From IMG/VR virus record IMGVR_UViG_3300015610_000939: 54,552 bases of DNA, one strand, 5' to 3'. Below, piece after piece: positions 3,129 through 52,853 of this stretch. Numbering within the stretch: the stretch's first letter is position 1; the number at the start of each line of letters is the position of its first letter. The position numbers were made by a program, and so were the translations under genes. This DNA is from an uncultured virus (IMG/VR IMGVR_UViG_3300015610_000939) (Duplodnaviria; Heunggongvirae; Uroviricota; Caudoviricetes). The notes below the pieces were generated by a model. That model did no database searches. It saw nothing but the letters and a program-made list of their open reading frames with translations, and was not told where the DNA came from.

Positions 3129-3938
3129 ATGGAAGAATCCGTCATTTACCCGTCCATCACGAATCGTTTGCCTTTGACCGATAAGGAGCGAGACGAACTC
3201 GCAGCCTACGCGCTGAGGCAATACTTCTCTGAGAAGCAGGTTGGTAAGCCGTGGTACAGACCGGGGGTTACCGTGGACAACGTGCTTGAGGAGTTCGCGA
3301 AACCGACCTCTCCAATCTCCCCAATTTTCCTGGTGGAGCTTTGGAGGGACAAGGTTTCCTTGGAAGGGCTGAATTCCAAGAGAAAGCGTCCTGCCGAGCA
3401 GACTGTTGAGTATTACCTCAATCGAGAGAAGACAGCCCCGACCTACGAAAAGTGGGACATCAAAATCAACTCGATGAGAGGTGAGTTTGGTGGGATCACC
3501 AGGGCGATGATCGCAAAGATTGCCTCCAAGGGAATGAGCAAGATTTCTTGGCTTCTGGATGGGGTTAGTCCAGAGGACATGAGTCCAGAGGCCGATTTGC
3601 TCTTGAATGAGAAGATCGACCGAGTAAGGCAAGAAACAGCGATTTGGTTCGCGAAGAACCTTTGGGAACATGCCGGAAGGGTTATGAGGTTTCTGGCAAA
3701 GCTCAATAGCAAAGGAATTCTCACGAAAACCGAGTTTGAGCTGGTGACGGAAGCTGAGTACCAGACACTCTGTGAGTTGGCGCACTTGAAACAAGAGGAG
3801 ATTGTACCATTTCTTCTCTGCGACATTGAAGAGGATGACAACCTGTTCAGGTCGTATCAGAACGCTGTGTCCTACTTCGTCTTTGCTGACATGAGGCTTG
3901 CTGCTCGGTCATCTGAAGATGAGGACGAGACGAGCTAG
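3129..3938 (+). CDS. hypothetical protein
   Basis: 269 aa ORF, AAGGAG RBS. Confidence 0.7.
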   Translation: MEESVIYPSITNRLPLTDKERDELAAYALRQYFSEKQVGKPWYRPGVTVDNVLEEFAKPTSPISPIFLVELWRDKVSLEGLNSKRKRPAEQTVEYYLNREKTAPTYEKWDIKINSMRGEFGGITRAMIAKIASKGMSKISWLLDGVSPEDMSPEADLLLNEKIDRVRQETAIWFAKNLWEHAGRVMRFLAKLNSKGILTKTEFELVTEAEYQTLCELAHLKQEEIVPFLLCDIEEDDNLFRSYQNAVSYFVFADMRLAARSSEDEDETS

Positions 3939-18388: not shown

Positions 18389-19627
18389 TCAACCCTTGAC
18401 GCACAAGACCTGCTTGAGTGTGTGCACAACCTCGACAAGGTCTGCCTGAGCTGCCATGACAGCGTCGATGTCCTTGTAGCATGCAGGAGTTTCGTCGATC
18501 ACGTCCTCATCCTTCCGACATTCGATGCCGCTGGTTGCCAGCTTGTGGTCTTCCAGGGAGAAGGTCTTCTTGGCTTCCGTACGGGACATGACTCGGCCAG
18601 CTCCATGGGAGCAAGAATCGAAGGACTCTGGATTCCCAAGCCCACGAACGATGTAGGAGCGAGCTCCCATCGAACCTGGGATGATGCCAAGCATTCCCTT
18701 GGAAGCCCGGACGGCACCCTTGCGGGTCACCAGGACACTCTCACCGAAGTGAGTCTCCCTGGAGACGTAGTTGTGGTGGCAGTTGACGGCTTCCATTTCT
18801 GCACTGAAAGGAGGGATTCCCTTGGTTTCACGGATTGCCTTGAGAACCCGGCCCATCATGAGCATGCGGTTCGTTCGAGCATACTCCTGTGCCCACTCTA
18901 CAGCGTGGCAGTAGTCATCGAAGAGAGTGGTTCCCTCAGAGAGGTAAGCCAAGTCCTGGTCAAGGAGATTGATGTGGAACTTCTTCATCTCCTCCTTTGC
19001 CTGGGAAATGAAGTAGGAACCGATGGAGTTCCCGACACCACGGGAACCAGAGTGCAGCATGACCCACACGTTCTGGTTCTCATCAAGGCAGACCTCGATG
19101 AAGTGGTTTCCTGTCCCGAGCGAGCAAAGCTGCTTGAGGCCACGAAGATCGTTCTGACGGAACACCTTTGGGTGCTTGTCAACGATCTGCTTCAACCCAG
19201 GTTGCATCTTCAACCAAGCAGCTTCCACCTCTTCAGGAGCCTGTCCCCAAGCTCCACGATCGTTCGCACCGCCATTGTCGGTACGACCATGAGGAACATT
19301 CTCCTCAATAAGCGAACGCATCTCAGCGAGGCTCACAGGAAGGTCCGAAGCCTTGAGGCTCGTGCGAATGCTAATAACACCGCAACCTAAATCGACACCA
19401 ACGCAAGCTGGGATCACAGCACCCTTCGTTGGGATCACAGACCCCACAGTAGAGCCCTTTCCTGCATGAACATCTGGCATGATTGCGATGTGCTTGTGGA
19501 TAAACGGGAGGGAGGCCATCTTGCTGACTTGCTGGCGTGCCTCATCCTCGAACTTGACACCCTTGACCCAAGCCTTCGCTCCGACCTTACCACCCGTCTC
19601 GATCCACTCGTACTTCTGTTCCGTCAT
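18389..19627 (-). CDS. rtcB: RtcB 3'-phosphate/5'-OH RNA ligase
   Basis: MPDVHAGKG, GVDLGCG, LGTGNHFIE, HSGSRG, CHHNY, TRKGA, IPGSMG, SHGAGR, DETPACYK motifs all present. Confidence 0.97.
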   Translation of the reverse strand: MTEQKYEWIETGGKVGAKAWVKGVKFEDEARQQVSKMASLPFIHKHIAIMPDVHAGKGSTVGSVIPTKGAVIPACVGVDLGCGVISIRTSLKASDLPVSLAEMRSLIEENVPHGRTDNGGANDRGAWGQAPEEVEAAWLKMQPGLKQIVDKHPKVFRQNDLRGLKQLCSLGTGNHFIEVCLDENQNVWVMLHSGSRGVGNSIGSYFISQAKEEMKKFHINLLDQDLAYLSEGTTLFDDYCHAVEWAQEYARTNRMLMMGRVLKAIRETKGIPPFSAEMEAVNCHHNYVSRETHFGESVLVTRKGAVRASKGMLGIIPGSMGARSYIVRGLGNPESFDSCSHGAGRVMSRTEAKKTFSLEDHKLATSGIECRKDEDVIDETPACYKDIDAVMAAQADLVEVVHTLKQVLCVKG

Positions 19628-40054: not shown

Positions 40055-40179
40055 AGAAATGTGANNCACTCCTACGTTTAGGAATTTGAACAAAGGGAGT
40101 GGGCGAGCTTACCGCCGAAAAAATAGCTGTACCTGATAGGCAGGGTTGGAAGTTCAAGTCTTCTCTACAGCTCCGACAA

Positions 40180-41404: not shown

Positions 41405-41476
41405 CCGAGATAGGTTAATGGTAAACCAACGCACCGAAACTGCGGCAATCCTGGTTCGAATCCAGGTCGATCGGCC
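41404..41476 (+). tRNA. tRNA-Phe(GAA)-like, degenerate acceptor
   Basis: good D and T arms, CGCA-CCGAAAC-TGCG, bulged acceptor. Confidence 0.5.
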
Positions 41477-41891: not shown

Positions 41892-42036
41892 CTTCCAACT
41901 GAAGCCAGCCCAGGCACCAAACCTGCGGTGTTGGGGACCATAGAGGCCCAAAAGTAATCTCGTGAGTCGCGTCCTGGATAAGGGCGCCTGTTGGGAGTCA
42001 GTTAACATCACTTCCATCCTCTGCTATGCTCCTTGC

Positions 42037-42291
42037 ATGGCAAGGAAGAAGATCGAAAAGAACCAAAAAGACCCGAACGTCTTCTGGATGATCCGGGAGA
42101 AGAGCACCGGTCTGTACTACACTGGGAAATACTGGCGTTCGTTTGCGGTGGCAGGGAAGCTATTCACTAGCCACAACAGACTGCTCGGTGTCATCTCAAG
42201 GAAATTCAAGAAAAACCAAGAGCTCTACGAGGTTGTTGAATTCAAGCGAGTTGAGGTCGCTGTAGCGGAGGTTGCTGGTTATGGAGAGTGA
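42037..42291 (+). CDS. hypothetical protein
   Basis: 84 aa from MARKKIEK. Confidence 0.55.
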   Translation: MARKKIEKNQKDPNVFWMIREKSTGLYYTGKYWRSFAVAGKLFTSHNRLLGVISRKFKKNQELYEVVEFKRVEVAVAEVAGYGE

Positions 42292-42619
42292 GCAAAGATT
42301 TGGAGTTGCCGAGGCTGCTATGGCAGTCGACCTTCTGTCAAAGATGGTCAACCCCCCTCCATCCGACCAGATGATGGACCCTGAGCTTGTCAGGCACATC
42401 AAGGAGTTCGTCTCCAACATTACCCCCGACTCGCCAACGCCTGTGGAAGTGTGGAACTTCTGCAAGGAAATGCTGGACTACACTGTTCGGTATTCCTGGG
42501 GAGCCCCGATTGTGCTTGCTTGCCTCAATCTTGAGGGTAGGTCTCGGGCACCGCTTGGCTCCTTTGCCCAAGAGTTCGGCAACATGAATGACGCTCCGTG
42601 GCGTCAAAATGAGACTTGA
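42281..42619 (+). CDS. hypothetical protein
   Basis: GGAGG RBS, 112 aa. Confidence 0.55.
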   Translation: MESEQRFGVAEAAMAVDLLSKMVNPPPSDQMMDPELVRHIKEFVSNITPDSPTPVEVWNFCKEMLDYTVRYSWGAPIVLACLNLEGRSRAPLGSFAQEFGNMNDAPWRQNET

Positions 42620-42649
42620 CAGAGTGGGATTTGCTCCTAATCTAGGAGC

Positions 42650-42871
42650 ATGAAAACGAGAACAGTCTACGGGATGGCAGCAATCGGTCCGCTCGCCTAT
42701 TTCTCTGGAAAAGGGAGAATTGACAGTAGGCTGCTCTACACTTCACTCGAAGCCTTGGAAAAGGATCGAGAAGCCTTCAAGACCCGTGCCCTCGAAGGTG
42801 GGAACCCACTCACTTCACTTCAGACCGTGACTGATATCCAGGTCATTGAGTACGAACTCGTGGAGGACTGA
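42650..42871 (+). CDS. hypothetical protein
   Basis: 73 aa after a TTGACA/TAATCT promoter. Confidence 0.55.
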   Translation: MKTRTVYGMAAIGPLAYFSGKGRIDSRLLYTSLEALEKDREAFKTRALEGGNPLTSLQTVTDIQVIEYELVED

Positions 42872-42917
42872 AACTATTATCTCTCCGTAGTCTAACAGGA
42901 TAGGGCACCGTCCTTCT

Positions 42918-43412
42918 CTAACTTTTCACTTTCCGTTCTTGGATGTTTTCCAAGGAAAGGATGCCAGAATCAAACTCCCAGTGATGGTTGGGACACAATA
43001 CGAGCACATTTGAGGGATGGTTAACATCTCCAAGTGTGGCGCTGGCACTAAAAGAGGCTATCGCTTTGATATGGGCAAGCTCAACATGCTGGTGATAACC
43101 GCAAACTTGGCACGGAAGCTTTCGAAGTTGACTATTCCAACTTCGATTGAAAGCTCGGATGTGTGAGTTAACCCACGAAGGGTGCTTGCCAACAACCGAA
43201 AGTCTTGACTGGTAATCAGAAATGGTCATGAGTTTTATCTCTTGAGTAGTTGGTATCTTCCGCGCTTTTTTGAGTTTCGGTTTGTTTCTTTGCTTCCCAA
43301 GGTTGTTAATGCTTGCCGCACATGAACTTGAGCAGAAATGTCGTGGATGGCGTTTTACTTGATTGGGCTTTTTCTGAAACTGCTTTCCACATTTGAGACA
43401 CACAACGTTCAT
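42918..43412 (-). CDS. HNH endonuclease with N-terminal zinc-binding motifs
   Basis: CLKCGK..FCSSSCA; CQVCGY..VELAHIK....N..VLCPNHHWEFD; AAGGAG RBS. Confidence 0.9.
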   Translation of the reverse strand: MNVVCLKCGKQFQKKPNQVKRHPRHFCSSSCAASINNLGKQRNKPKLKKARKIPTTQEIKLMTISDYQSRLSVVGKHPSWVNSHIRAFNRSWNSQLRKLPCQVCGYHQHVELAHIKAIASFSASATLGDVNHPSNVLVLCPNHHWEFDSGILSLENIQERKVKS

Positions 43413-43424
43413 GAATTCTCCTTT

Positions 43425-43498
43425 GTCCCGGTATGCCGCCTGACTTCTAATCAGGAGAAAGCTAATGGATCATGCAGGTTCGACCCCTGTCCGGGACG
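43425..43498 (+). tRNA. non-canonical D-armless tRNA-Arg(TCT)
   Basis: GTCCCGG/CCGGGAC, 7-nt linker TATGCCG, CCTGA-CTTCTAA-TCAGG, 18-nt variable region, GCAGG-TTCGACC-CCTGT. Confidence 0.75.
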
Positions 43499-43625
43499 CA
43501 AATGCAATTTACTCTGCAAAACAACTCTTGTTTTGCAAAAACTTGTGGGAGTTCAAATCTCCCCGGAGAGGCCAATACAACGATCCACTTCTTTTCCACC
43601 TTGCACTTCGGAATAGGAACTATCT

Positions 43626-44063
43626 ATGGCGAAGGCAAAGAAAGAAATGGCGGATAAACTTCGTGGAACAACTGATCACGACCTGCGTGAGTTGGTCGGG
43701 AAGAAGATCAAGGAGATCACCCTCTACAAGGTGAACGCTTCGTCTGATGGTTCGGACATTAGGCAGTTCTACCGTATCAAGGTGGCAGGCAGGGGCGAGA
43801 ATGAGTTCATCCTTGCTTGTGACGGCGGGAATAGTCAGCAGTACGCAAGGGTATCCTTGATGTATCCTGACGACTTCGAAGCCTTCCTTTCCGAGCTTGG
43901 TGACGATGCCGAGCCGGATGTTGACGAAGAAGAGGATGTGGACCTCGAACCTGATGGTGATGAGGCGGTTCCTGCCAACCTCTTTGATGAGATCGAATCC
44001 GAGGATGACGAAGACGACGATCCCGACGCAGAGGGCGATGAAGACGAAGACGACGATTACTGA
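43626..44063 (+). CDS. protein with highly acidic C-terminal tail
   Basis: 145 aa; last ~55 aa dominated by D/E. Confidence 0.7.
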   Translation: MAKAKKEMADKLRGTTDHDLRELVGKKIKEITLYKVNASSDGSDIRQFYRIKVAGRGENEFILACDGGNSQQYARVSLMYPDDFEAFLSELGDDAEPDVDEEEDVDLEPDGDEAVPANLFDEIESEDDEDDDPDAEGDEDEDDDY

Positions 44064-44089
44064 TCGTTGTGCCCGAAAGGGCAAAGTTT

Positions 44090-44162
44090 GCAGCTATGGT
44101 CTAAAGGATAATGATGTCGCATTGCCAGTGCGACGGTGCGAGTTCGATTCTCGCTAGCTGCT
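44090..44162 (+). tRNA. tRNA-Gly(GCC)
   Basis: TCGCA-TTGCCAG-TGCGA. Confidence 0.88.
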
Positions 44163-44206
44163 CTATCCAGGTAAACTTCTGATTCCCTTCCTGGTATGTT
44201 CCTGGC

Positions 44207-44587
44207 ATGAGAAAACCAAGAACCAAGGGTGTCCTAACGGACGAGCAAGTGAAAGAGATGCTCAGCCAACTGGAGGCTCACTTTGATGAGCCTGTGCGGC
44301 CTGTCTCGGAATACTGTGAGGCACTGGAGACCTGGAGCCGGGTTGTTTGCAAGAAATACCCTGCGGAAGCCCGTGTACACTCCTCAATTCGTCTTTCCAT
44401 CAAGAAGAGCAACCTCCTTGCGAGGCTGATCTACGGTGGGGAGAAGTTGAGAACAAGGGAGTGTCCCATTCACAAAGGCGAGTGGAACGGCCAAGCGATG
44501 CTCATGGGTTGCGAGCACAAGTGTGATGGAACTGGCTGGCTGAGAGAGCCGGAAGATGAAAACGCACCTGGGGGTGTTGACGGCTGA
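44207..44587 (+). CDS. hypothetical Cys/His-containing protein
   Basis: 126 aa; CPIH...C.H.CDGTGW. Confidence 0.6.
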   Translation: MRKPRTKGVLTDEQVKEMLSQLEAHFDEPVRPVSEYCEALETWSRVVCKKYPAEARVHSSIRLSIKKSNLLARLIYGGEKLRTRECPIHKGEWNGQAMLMGCEHKCDGTGWLREPEDENAPGGVDG

Positions 44588-45289: not shown

Positions 45290-45362
45290 GGACCTTTGGT
45301 GTAGCAGGTGCGCACGCTAGCCTGAAGAACTTGAGGTCGCGGGTCGGTACCGCGAGGGTCCA
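45290..45362 (+). tRNA. tRNA-Phe(GAA), weak anticodon stem
   Basis: GGACCTT/AGGGTCC, loop CTGAAGA. Confidence 0.7.
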
Positions 45363-46348: not shown

Positions 46349-46434
46349 GGGCGGGTAGCTCAGTCGGTAGAGCAGTTGGCGAGGGAGAAATCCCGACCCA
46401 ACCGCGCGGAGGTTCGATCCCTCCCCCTGACCCA
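46349..46434 (+). ncRNA. anticodon-less tRNA-like RNA (GAAA-capped arm)
   Basis: canonical D arm GCTC-AGTCGGTA-GAGC and T arm; GTTGG/CCAAC encloses GGGA-GAAA-TCCC. Confidence 0.65.
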
Positions 46435-47216: not shown

Positions 47217-47294
47217 CGAAGTGTACCGACCCTGGCTCTTAACCAGGAGAATCGTAATTGGTTGCAAATGAGGGTTCGAGTCCCTCCGCTTCGA
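47217..47294 (+). tRNA. non-canonical D-armless tRNA-Lys(CTT)
   Basis: CGAAGTG/CGCTTCG, 7-nt linker TACCGAC, CCTGG-CTCTTAA-CCAGG, 22-nt variable region, GAGGG-TTCGAGT-CCCTC. Confidence 0.75.
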
Positions 47295-47621: not shown

Positions 47622-47693
47622 GGGCCTGTCGTCTAATAGCAAGGACAATCTGCTTCCCCGCAGACGATAGAGGTGCAACTCCTCTCGGGCCCA
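47622..47693 (+). tRNA. tRNA with non-7-nt anticodon loop, identity undetermined
   Basis: GGGCCTG/CGGGCCC, TCTGC-TTCCCC-GCAGA. Confidence 0.6.
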
Positions 47694-47835
47694 CCGGCAA
47701 AAAAGTCTACACTGAGAGTTTGAACAAACCTTGCAGTCTCCCATGATTGGTAAGCGCTTACTGGTCTAGGGGGGAATGCAGCGGAGCCAGCTCTCTGTGT
47801 AGATGGCGGCTCAAACGCGAGAGTCGTTTCAAAAC

Positions 47836-48680: not shown

Positions 48681-48756
48681 AGCAGGGTAGAGCAGAAGTA
48701 GCTCGCTTGGCTCATAACCAAGAGGTCGTGGAGAGCATTTCCCACCCCTGCTACCA
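48681..48756 (+). tRNA. tRNA-Met(CAT), atypical T loop
   Basis: CTTGG-CTCATAA-CCAAG, CCA; T loop lacks TTC. Confidence 0.8.
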
Positions 48757-49645: not shown

Positions 49646-49719
49646 GCACCCATCTTCTAACGGTTCAGGAAACCACCCTTTCAAGGTGTGAAATACGGGT
49701 TCAAATCCCGTTGGGTGCG
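49646..49719 (+). tRNA. tRNA-Glu(TTC)
   Basis: CACC-CTTTCAA-GGTG. Confidence 0.85.
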
Positions 49720-50202
49720 CTACTTCTTCTTCTGGTACTCAACCTGATTGGCGTTCCAGACGACAATTTCCCGCAACTTTCCATTGAAGAACTGAAAGAT
49801 TGCGTCATACCCCTTGGACTGAGCCAAGTTCTTGACTTGAGTTCCGAGGTAACCTTTCTTCATTTCTTCCTTCTCAACGAAGGCTTCGGCCTTTGCTTGA
49901 TCGACTCCGAGCTGAACAAGGGCGTCCACCATAGGGTGGGTACGGTTGTTGTCGGTGTAAATCTTCAAGGGGTTATGGATTCTCAGGCGTGTCTGAACAA
50001 CCTGACCACCTGACTCAGCAGCATAATCCTGGGCAACATCCTTGATTGGGGTGAAGTAAGCGCCAGAACCAAGCGCTCCTCTGCCATTTGTCTTAACGGC
50101 CTTGACACCGTCCCAGGTACCACCATGGTATACGGGACCAATGTTGAAGTCGTTCTCGTCTTCCAAGAGCAAGGAGTAGATGCTGTACCAATGAGCACTC
50201 AT
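49720..50202 (-). CDS. ADP-ribosyltransferase-like protein (ART-PolyVal type)
   Basis: VYHGG, G.LGSGAYFTP....A..YA, L.I.NPL, GYDAI......EIVVW...Q (H-Y-E triad pattern). Confidence 0.75.
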   Translation of the reverse strand: MSAHWYSIYSLLLEDENDFNIGPVYHGGTWDGVKAVKTNGRGALGSGAYFTPIKDVAQDYAAESGGQVVQTRLRIHNPLKIYTDNNRTHPMVDALVQLGVDQAKAEAFVEKEEMKKGYLGTQVKNLAQSKGYDAIFQFFNGKLREIVVWNANQVEYQKKK

Positions 50203-52782: not shown

Positions 52783-52853
52783 TAGATGGTAGCTTAATGG
52801 AAAAGCACCCTGCGGAAAGCAGGAAGATGTGGGTTCGAGTCCCACTAGTCGAG
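52783..52853 (+). ncRNA. degenerate tRNA-like RNA with GGAAA loop
   Basis: D and T arms good, CCTGC-GGAAA-GCAGG, poor acceptor. Confidence 0.5.

Follow-up and report, generated by a model that had tools for sequence, protein, structure and literature searches.

A cassette of an HNH endonuclease gene and a D-arm-rewired tRNA-Arg(UCU) inside the canonical tRNA-Arg(UCU) gene of an uncultured wastewater phage

How does a phage tRNA gene come to be interrupted directly after its anticodon by an antisense HNH endonuclease gene, with a second tRNA of the same anticodon lying inside the interruption? The question is raised by a locus in a 54,552-nucleotide (nt) stretch of metagenomic DNA, hereafter the window, from an uncultured Caudoviricetes virus, a wastewater phage (IMG/VR IMGVR_UViG_3300015610_000939). 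We consider it probable that a mobile cassette, made up of a free-standing HNH homing gene, a tRNA-Arg(UCU) of rewired architecture (the cargo tRNA) and a hairpin spacer, replaced nucleotides 37–44 of the phage's canonical tRNA-Arg(UCU). All whole-window counts given below cover the 54,552-nt window and not the rest of the phage genome. L-numbers denote comparison loci or contigs, and X13–X16 denote four public runs whose contigs were compared with the window.

The 5' remnant of the resident canonical tRNA-Arg(UCU) lies at 42881–42917 on the plus strand and aligns with the intact genes of L197 and L199. It comprises nucleotides 1–36: a 7-nt acceptor strand, U8 and A9, a D arm with a 4-bp stem and a 9-nt loop containing GG followed by A, the 5' strand of the anticodon stem, and the loop as far as the anticodon TCT. 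As noted in a preliminary description of this DNA, the 5' half ends after the anticodon at 42917 and is followed by an antisense HNH gene at 42918–43412, whose stop codon starts at the base right after the anticodon (42918). The 3' remnant, recognized from its sequence, from intact relatives and from joined contigs described below, occupies 43543–43574 on the plus strand and consists of the variable loop TTGT, T arm, acceptor strand, discriminator G and CCA, ending at 43574. Its acceptor strand is complementary at 7/7 positions to 42881–42887, and the GACGG strand is missing, both as first described; its start required correction, from 43547 to 43543, taking in TTGT. Exactly 8 nt of the tRNA (nucleotides 37–44) are absent, including the whole 3' strand of the anticodon stem and loop nucleotides 37–38, so neither splicing nor pairing of the halves can rebuild the resident tRNA. 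In Nanoarchaeum-type split tRNA genes, the pieces together contain every tRNA nucleotide; the two outer pieces here together lack the 3' anticodon-stem strand and loop nucleotides 37–38. The outer pieces amount to a scar rather than a functional split gene. At position 42911, in the dead 5' strand of the anticodon stem, the window and contig L211 have T and the X13/X14 contigs have C; such variation among strains with the filled allele would fit relaxed constraint on the scar.

The inserted cassette, delimited by the joined contigs of X15 and X16, spans 625 bp (42918–43542) in place of nucleotides 37–44, and its G+C content is 44.6% versus 51.4% for the window. The HNH gene occupies 42918–43412 on the minus strand and encodes 164 amino acids. 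Between its start and the cargo tRNA is a 12-nt gap (43413–43424), which reads on the minus strand as AAAGGAGAATTC followed by ATG and bears the Shine-Dalgarno sequence of the HNH gene. The cargo tRNA-Arg(UCU) of 74 nt (43425–43498, plus strand) is followed by a 44-nt spacer (43499–43542, plus strand) containing a perfect 9-bp hairpin at 43516–43536, and spacers with a hairpin are also found 3' of the cargo tRNA in L001 and L096. The HNH open reading frame (ORF) matched Pfam HNH_2 (PF13391) over profile positions 1–65 of 66 with 43.1 bits (E = 3.7e-11; cut-off, 21 bits) and PHROG 1271, an HNH endonuclease family (phrog_1271), with E = 1.5e-10. Its N-terminal region is Cys-rich, the HNH core is C-terminal and intact, including its conserved His, Asn and Cys residues, and all 28 invariant columns of 11 aligned relatives are retained. 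Terminator-like sites were weak and no more frequent than by chance (4 found versus 2.2 expected); the minus-strand T-arm hairpin of the 3' remnant, with a T run, also scores as weakly terminator-like.

Is the interruption an insertion, and does an uninterrupted form exist? The exact 37-nt 5' half had no match in IMG/VR, and the sole DNA-similarity match of 42000–44500 to 50,697 phage records was a low-complexity stretch encoding an acidic protein. A degenerate pattern of the 5' half retrieved four IMG/VR loci with intact relatives. In L197 the tRNA-Arg(UCU) is whole and shares its acceptor and T stems with the window's gene, and the gene order of this locus is that of the window minus the insert: tRNA-Arg, a homologue of the ORF at 43626–44063 (49% identity, E = 4e-31) and tRNA-Gly. 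In the RNA libraries X15 and X16, one contig each joins 42917 to 43543, skipping 625 nt and carrying 8 other letters between. These letters correspond to loop positions 37–38, the 3' stem strand and the first variable-loop base, giving an intact tRNA-Arg. A modelled joined form was called by ARAGORN as tRNA-Arg(tct) of 77 nt; its single U-U stem mismatch appears in a model built with the window's 5' strand rather than the contig's own base. With 18 letters different from the window in each of its halves (477 nt and 758 nt), the X15 contig derives from another, near-identical strain and not from spliced window RNA. Thus the empty, intact tRNA-Arg site anticipated in related phages is represented both by the joined contigs and by the syntenic L197, and these two also provide the presence/absence polymorphism that we looked for as a test of a free-standing homing endonuclease gene.

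The filled allele was likewise found outside the window. ENA contig L211 covers the whole cassette and both junctions, and it was the only hit, again of the filled allele, when the 3' piece alone served as the query. In X13 and X14, which belong to another study, contigs extend over the left junction into the cassette, and this stretch is present at half or more of its words in wastewater and activated-sludge runs of at least seven studies. An assembly artefact or chimera might be suspected in a metagenomic window that has two Ns, which lie at 40065–40066 and away from the cassette; the independent contig spanning both junctions, the left-junction contigs and the recurrence across studies refute it for practical purposes. 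A chance origin of the layout is also excluded, because intact homologues exist in L197 and in L006/L199 and because L211 spans the filled arrangement.

The position of the split, directly after the anticodon as in bacterial tRNA group I introns, together with an RtcB gene in the window, raises the possibility of an intron, of group I or another kind, whose splicing, perhaps with the phage RtcB, restores the outer tRNA-Arg. However, none of the five Rfam matches in 42000–44500 (E up to 10) belonged to an intron family, and nucleotides 37–44 are absent from the window, so that no splice rebuilds the tRNA. Moreover, 8 letters of the joined contigs have no counterpart in the window, and further differences elsewhere mark these contigs as another allele. 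We regard the intron explanation as very improbable and close to refuted. These observations bear out the earlier proposal of an intron-less insertion that destroys a conserved tRNA-Arg(UCU) and brings in a tRNA of the same anticodon. We are confident of the anatomy and of the insertion: the cassette inserted with loss of 8 tRNA bases.

We then focused on the cargo tRNA. tRNAs in the window were sought with ARAGORN, with the Rfam tRNA model (RF00005; gathering score, 29 bits) and with R1, a model built here for the class of rewired tRNAs described below. The cargo was not called by ARAGORN, scored 36.4 bits against RF00005, above the gathering score, and scored 69.5 bits (E = 7e-17) against R1. 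In the Rfam fit, 15 D-arm model positions are reduced to 4 nt, and 15 nt are inserted after the anticodon arm. The order of its elements is a 7-bp acceptor stem, UA, a short helix that we call helix P, an anticodon arm with the loop CTTCTAA, a D-loop-like motif TAATGGA and a T arm, ending in a discriminator G with no encoded CCA. Encoded CCA occurs in 13 of the 30 Rfam tRNA matches of the window and so does not set the cargo apart. With no D arm between position 9 and the anticodon arm, the cargo is not a canonical cloverleaf. The preliminary description of this RNA as lacking a D arm therefore holds for the region before the anticodon arm only: a D-loop-like motif (A14, G18 G19 and A20) is located 3' of the anticodon arm, and it is the anticodon arm that a short covarying helix closes.

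Several features of the cargo sequence hint at tRNA-Arg, namely the UCU anticodon, the discriminator G and the A20-like base after GG, A20 being what we take to be an identity element for arginyl-tRNA synthetase. As previously claimed, the cargo is the only Arg decoder found in the window; no other was detected there by ARAGORN (27 genes, or 28 with the intron option), Rfam (30 matches) or R1. AGA and AGG make up 16% and 25%, respectively, of Arg codons in 53 long ORFs, and this total of 41% implies a demand for a UCU decoder. In the 129-kb contig of L197, where the canonical gene is intact, no R1 match exceeded 28 bits, the range of canonical cross-hits. This one-for-one pattern, with the canonical gene only in L197 and a rewired gene plus a dead canonical one in the window, fits replacement.

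Is the unusual wiring peculiar to this cassette? We searched IMG/VR with a pattern composed of the anticodon loop, the D-loop-like motif and the T loop. Matches were obtained in at least 120 contigs, with 103 distinct sequences among the matches listed. We aligned 100 distinct members, comprising 94 pattern matches selected for a 7/7 acceptor stem, the window's cargo and five sequences from HNH loci. In this alignment, 92.2% of pair cells were standard, and the covariation score was 0.863, versus 0.218 for shuffled alignments (none of 500 shuffles reached the observed value) and at most 0.16 with the partners slid. Pairing reached 99.9% in the acceptor stem (the selection criterion), 91% in the anticodon stem and 99.6% in the T stem, and the anticodon loop (CTTCTAA), D-loop motif and T loop were invariant. 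Helix P is formed by bases after position 9 that pair with bases just before the invariant TAAYTGGA; columns 12–14 paired with columns 47–49 in 100, 100 and 70% of members, with many double changes. We read TAAYTGGA as A14 through G18 G19 A20 of a D loop that would have moved behind the anticodon arm. Helix P may then be a D stem with swapped strand order, stacked directly on the anticodon stem. An alternative placement of a D stem within the variable region of the cargo was rejected, since covariation favours helix P. Most members have G or A as the discriminator, and an encoded CCA is present in some.

Among the matches listed, other tRNAs, all on the same strand, lay within 1.5 kb of the rewired element in 59 of 78 loci, and ARAGORN called the element itself in 1 of 78. 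An HNH gene of the family found in the window was near the rewired tRNA in 12 of 80 listed loci with 1.5-kb flanks and in 2 of 40 with short flanks. In these 14 loci the HNH gene was always on the opposite strand, and its start was 3–67 nt upstream of the tRNA in 11. Because the remaining 68 of the 80 loci had no family HNH gene within 1.5 kb, the rewired tRNA was not made for the cassette. The earlier idea that the cargo had been re-architected for this element is therefore not supported in that form, also in view of loci in which the arrangement is reversed (L006/L199 and L008, below).

Members of the class were also identified in named phages. The Felix O1-like coliphage bumzen (MN850635, L202) and Erwinia phage Ep030 (L201), both Ounavirinae, contain unannotated rewired tRNA(UCU) genes at about 1787–1865 (R1, 70.1 bits) and at 1400–1478 (R1, 73.8 bits), respectively. 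In both, an HNH gene on the same strand follows the tRNA directly, unlike the orientation in the window. The tRNA passages of the Felix O1 genome paper give 22 tRNAs, none with UCU. Mycobacteriophage Wildcat has a member with CCU, and Streptomyces phages also have matches to the class. RNA-library contigs with a depth of 110–800 match only the core at 43431–43470 and then diverge, being rewired tRNAs of other phages; they hint at expression of the class, not of the window's gene. In the window itself, a second rewired tRNA is present at 47217–47294 on the plus strand (R1, 70.1 bits, E = 5e-17). It has the loop CTCTTAA (CUU, Lys-like), and in its D-loop motif GG is followed by T rather than A; it has no HNH gene nearby and sits 127 nt downstream of a canonical-looking tRNA-Lys(CUU) with an odd T loop. 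Because of this CUU member, the rewired wiring is not confined to Arg. Judged from these alignments, the rewired tRNAs constitute a large, covarying, array-resident class of phage tRNAs, to which the cargo belongs.

The non-canonical wiring, the single ARAGORN call among the 78 loci listed and the closeness of the HNH start in 11 of the 14 loci with a family HNH gene could also mean that the rewired RNA is a tRNA mimic rather than a decoding tRNA, for example a decoy for a host anticodon nuclease, or an element that regulates the HNH gene or signals processing for it. Some phage tRNAs are known to act against defences that cut tRNAs (PMC11464382). The conservation pattern speaks against a mimic: the CTTCTAA loop is invariant, the motif A14, G18 G19, A20 is retained, the acceptor and T arms pair perfectly, G or A prevails at the discriminator position, and CCA is encoded in some members. 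In addition, the element is an ordinary member of tRNA arrays, and a comparison of the window, L197 and L006 shows one-for-one exchange of the canonical and rewired forms. A mimic thus seems to us an improbable account.

We investigated whether split tRNAs recur around relatives of the HNH gene. In IMG/VR, 76 loci with HNH relatives were found, 64 of them with at least one ARAGORN tRNA within about 3 kb. We searched for split flanks, defined by a 7-mer immediately past the HNH stop and, on the far side of the HNH start, an orphan T arm with an acceptor strand complementary to that 7-mer. Such flanks were present in 6 of 51 non-redundant HNH loci, versus a mean of 0.87 and a maximum of 4 in 30 shuffles; a looser earlier pass had given 7 of 58. 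All of the matches also show U8 A9 and D-arm features, and L015, L096 and L062 were added by eye. The arrangement is thus a repeated one, seen with HNH relatives on divergent phage contigs. At three loci, the window, L096 and L008, the HNH reading frame ends with a stop codon directly next to the anticodon or overlapping it. The position of the 5' junction varies, lying after nucleotide 36 or 37, after the D arm (L003) or within the D stem (L004). Accordingly, the proposed association of HNH homologues with split tRNAs and anticodon-matched cargo stands as regards split tRNAs and tRNA-Arg; it does not extend to at least one relative, L064, which lacks a cargo, and is turned around in L006/L199 and L008.

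In a quick tree of 51 HNH proteins, the window's protein fell in a subclade of 21 rows, whose boundary was drawn with the tRNA labels already known. A tRNA-Arg, canonical or rewired, lay at most 100 nt from the HNH ORF in 17 of 20 loci of this subclade versus 4 of 30 outside it. Outside the subclade, tRNA-Met(CAU) was directly beside the HNH gene in 13 of 30 loci (for example, L021, L025, L026, L036, L038, L056 and L067), suggesting that a sister HNH lineage is specialized on CAU tRNAs. That tRNA identity tracks HNH phylogeny is the pattern that would be expected from site-specific recognition of particular tRNA genes. If, instead, the HNH gene were a passenger, the nesting would have been built by illegitimate or homeologous recombination between tRNA-Arg genes at their shared anticodon-loop and T-loop motifs. 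The variable 5' junction, the several HNH remnants and tRNA pieces in the L006 and L008 regions and the loss of a conserved Cys pair from the window's HNH protein would suit such an origin. It is harder to reconcile with adjoining tRNAs that follow HNH phylogeny, with the enrichment of split flanks around HNH genes and with stop codons placed at the anticodon in three separate loci, and we consider it unlikely. Short extra HNH remnants containing only the C-terminal motif, together with orphan tRNA pieces, occur near the live HNH gene in L008 (about 2440–2490), in L006 (about 3441–3558) and in L099 (downstream of tRNA-Gln); the sites in L006, L008 and L099 have been invaded more than once.

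The reverse arrangement was found in two settings. In L006/L199, a rewired tRNA is split after the anticodon loop by a canonical tRNA-Arg(UCU) and an HNH gene whose product is 58% identical to that of the window; this canonical cargo belongs to the lineage of the window's victim tRNA. In L008, the interruption of a rewired tRNA comes immediately after TCT and contains an HNH gene and another canonical tRNA-Arg(UCU). In L006, target and cargo are identical over 15 bases spanning the anticodon arm and diverge only in the sequence that follows. Because this stretch is identical, the L006 enzyme, if it discriminates between target and cargo, must read the 3' flank, which differs between the two wirings; the earlier idea of an immune cargo thereby takes on a testable form.

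These findings allow a mechanism to be proposed for the insertion of a mobile cassette into the resident tRNA gene. During mixed infection, the HNH enzyme would cleave uninterrupted copies of tRNA-Arg(UCU) within the anticodon loop or immediately 3' of it, and the break would be repaired from the cassette-bearing genome, so that the cassette is copied in. The filled allele would be immune because the 3' anticodon-stem strand is gone, and the cargo gene would be spared because of the different sequence after its anticodon arm. Invasion would cost the phage little if the cargo tRNA assumes the decoding of AGA and AGG. A further step, which we offer tentatively and which may well prove wrong, is that cloverleaf and rewired tRNA-Arg(UCU) are interchangeable, mutually immune alleles held in phage populations by competing HNH lineages, each cutting the architecture that it does not carry and travelling with the one that resists it. 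The reciprocal cases fit this idea, because the target and cargo of L006 differ only after the anticodon arm, exactly where the two wirings differ.

Several observations weigh against the proposal that a homing cassette replaced part of the resident tRNA gene. The empty form of a close strain was seen only in X15 and X16, which as RNA libraries may contain DNA; no contig with the joined form was found in the DNA runs, and a gapped pattern for the empty allele had no match in JGI metagenome contigs. The window's HNH protein, which lacks the Cys pair kept by at least 90% of the 11 aligned relatives, may be weakened and is of uncertain activity at present. A scan of 42300–44200 for sigma-70-like promoters gave none. 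Helix P has only two standard pairs in the window's copy and its subfamily, and the search for Arg decoders covered the window, so that a tRNA-Arg(UCU) elsewhere in the genome is possible. On the comparative side, the HNH subclade was delimited post hoc, after its labels had been seen, and its support is weak (SH-aLRT, the Shimodaira-Hasegawa-like approximate likelihood-ratio test, 87); L064 has a split tRNA without any cargo tRNA; and, as the 68 listed loci without a family HNH gene indicate, the pairing of the two genes is not obligate.

Other features of the tRNA array were noted. The phage has about 30 tRNA genes and a full-length RtcB RNA ligase gene (18389–19627, minus strand; Pfam E = 1.4e-126); RtcB in a tRNA-rich phage suggests tRNA repair against host anticodon nucleases. 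A plus-strand tRNA at 49646–49720 (Rfam tRNA, 57.1 bits) has the anticodon UCA and was labelled selenocysteine (SeC) by ARAGORN; it is more likely of the opal-suppressor type. Five more Rfam tRNA matches on the plus strand were missed by ARAGORN (41406–41474, 45290–45362, 46353–46427, 48681–48753 and 52783–52853). A long extra hairpin replaces the anticodon loop in the match at 46353–46427, and that at 48681–48753 is a CAU tRNA. ARAGORN also called a tRNA with a two-base 'anticodon' at 47622–47695. The array thus contains several odd or decayed tRNAs. A protein with an ADP-ribosyltransferase domain (ART-PolyVal, E = 5e-14) is encoded within the array at 49720–50202 on the minus strand.

How does the cassette relate to known systems? 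Group I introns with homing endonuclease ORFs occur in the anticodon loops of bacterial tRNAs. The cassette resembles them in its insertion at the anticodon, its endonuclease ORF and its presence/absence polymorphism; it differs in that no intron RNA was detected in it, 8 exon bases were lost, and a second gene rather than splicing would restore function. Mitochondrial tRNAs without a D arm exist, for example mt-tRNA-Ser(AGY). Like the rewired class, this functional mitochondrial tRNA lacks a canonical D arm, whereas the rewired class has retained a D-loop-like motif, now positioned 3' of the anticodon arm, together with a D-stem-like helix that closes this arm, and its rewiring is in bacterial viruses. 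In T-even-type phages, homing endonuclease genes such as mobE split protein genes such as nrd. There the split protein halves still cooperate, whereas the split tRNA of the window cannot work, and a spare gene rides along. Common to both is a free-standing HNH-family gene in or beside an essential gene, tolerated by the phage.

Closer in genomic setting is SegB of T4 and T6, described in passages of PMC2330249 and PMC13096335 as a free-standing GIY-YIG homing endonuclease in a phage tRNA cluster. It recognizes an 11-bp TpsiC motif in a 27-bp site and drives the inheritance of itself and neighbouring tRNA genes when infections are mixed (PMC2330249). The segB gene and the cassette are alike as selfish endonuclease genes in phage tRNA arrays, SegB recognizing tRNA-gene sequence. 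In contrast to the window's HNH gene, segB belongs to the GIY-YIG family, sits between tRNA genes without splitting them and, in these passages, brings no structurally different replacement tRNA. Genes for the endonucleases F-TflI, II and IV are located in the tRNA cluster of T5 (cited in PMC2330249) and are thus, like the window's HNH gene, endonuclease ORFs in a phage tRNA cluster; unlike it, they are associated with no within-tRNA insertion and no paired spare tRNA in the passages of PMC2330249. In open-access papers and on bioRxiv we found neither a D-arm-rewired phage tRNA nor an HNH cassette that interrupts a tRNA gene and brings a substitute for it. That phage tRNA clusters can contain endonuclease genes is already known; the case described here would appear to couple free-standing homing to a new tRNA wiring.

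Taken together, two things would be new with respect to the literature searched. The first is a selfish nuclease gene that would kill an RNA gene from inside and compensate with a spare copy, being neither an intron nor a neighbour of its target. The second is a widespread phage tRNA wiring in which the D loop follows the anticodon arm. Because standard finders miss the class, tRNA-Arg(UCU) is under-counted in phage genomes, including those of Felix O1-like coliphages, Wildcat and Streptomyces phages. If cloverleaf and rewired forms are indeed mutually immune alleles, the rewired tRNA would be maintained, and may have arisen, as a nuclease-resistant yet translation-competent design. If it is charged and decodes, it would widen the structural limits of a working bacterial-type tRNA and provide a compact scaffold for tRNA engineering. 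Since cultured E. coli phages carry the rewired tRNA beside an HNH gene, the ideas on both homing and wiring are open to bench testing.

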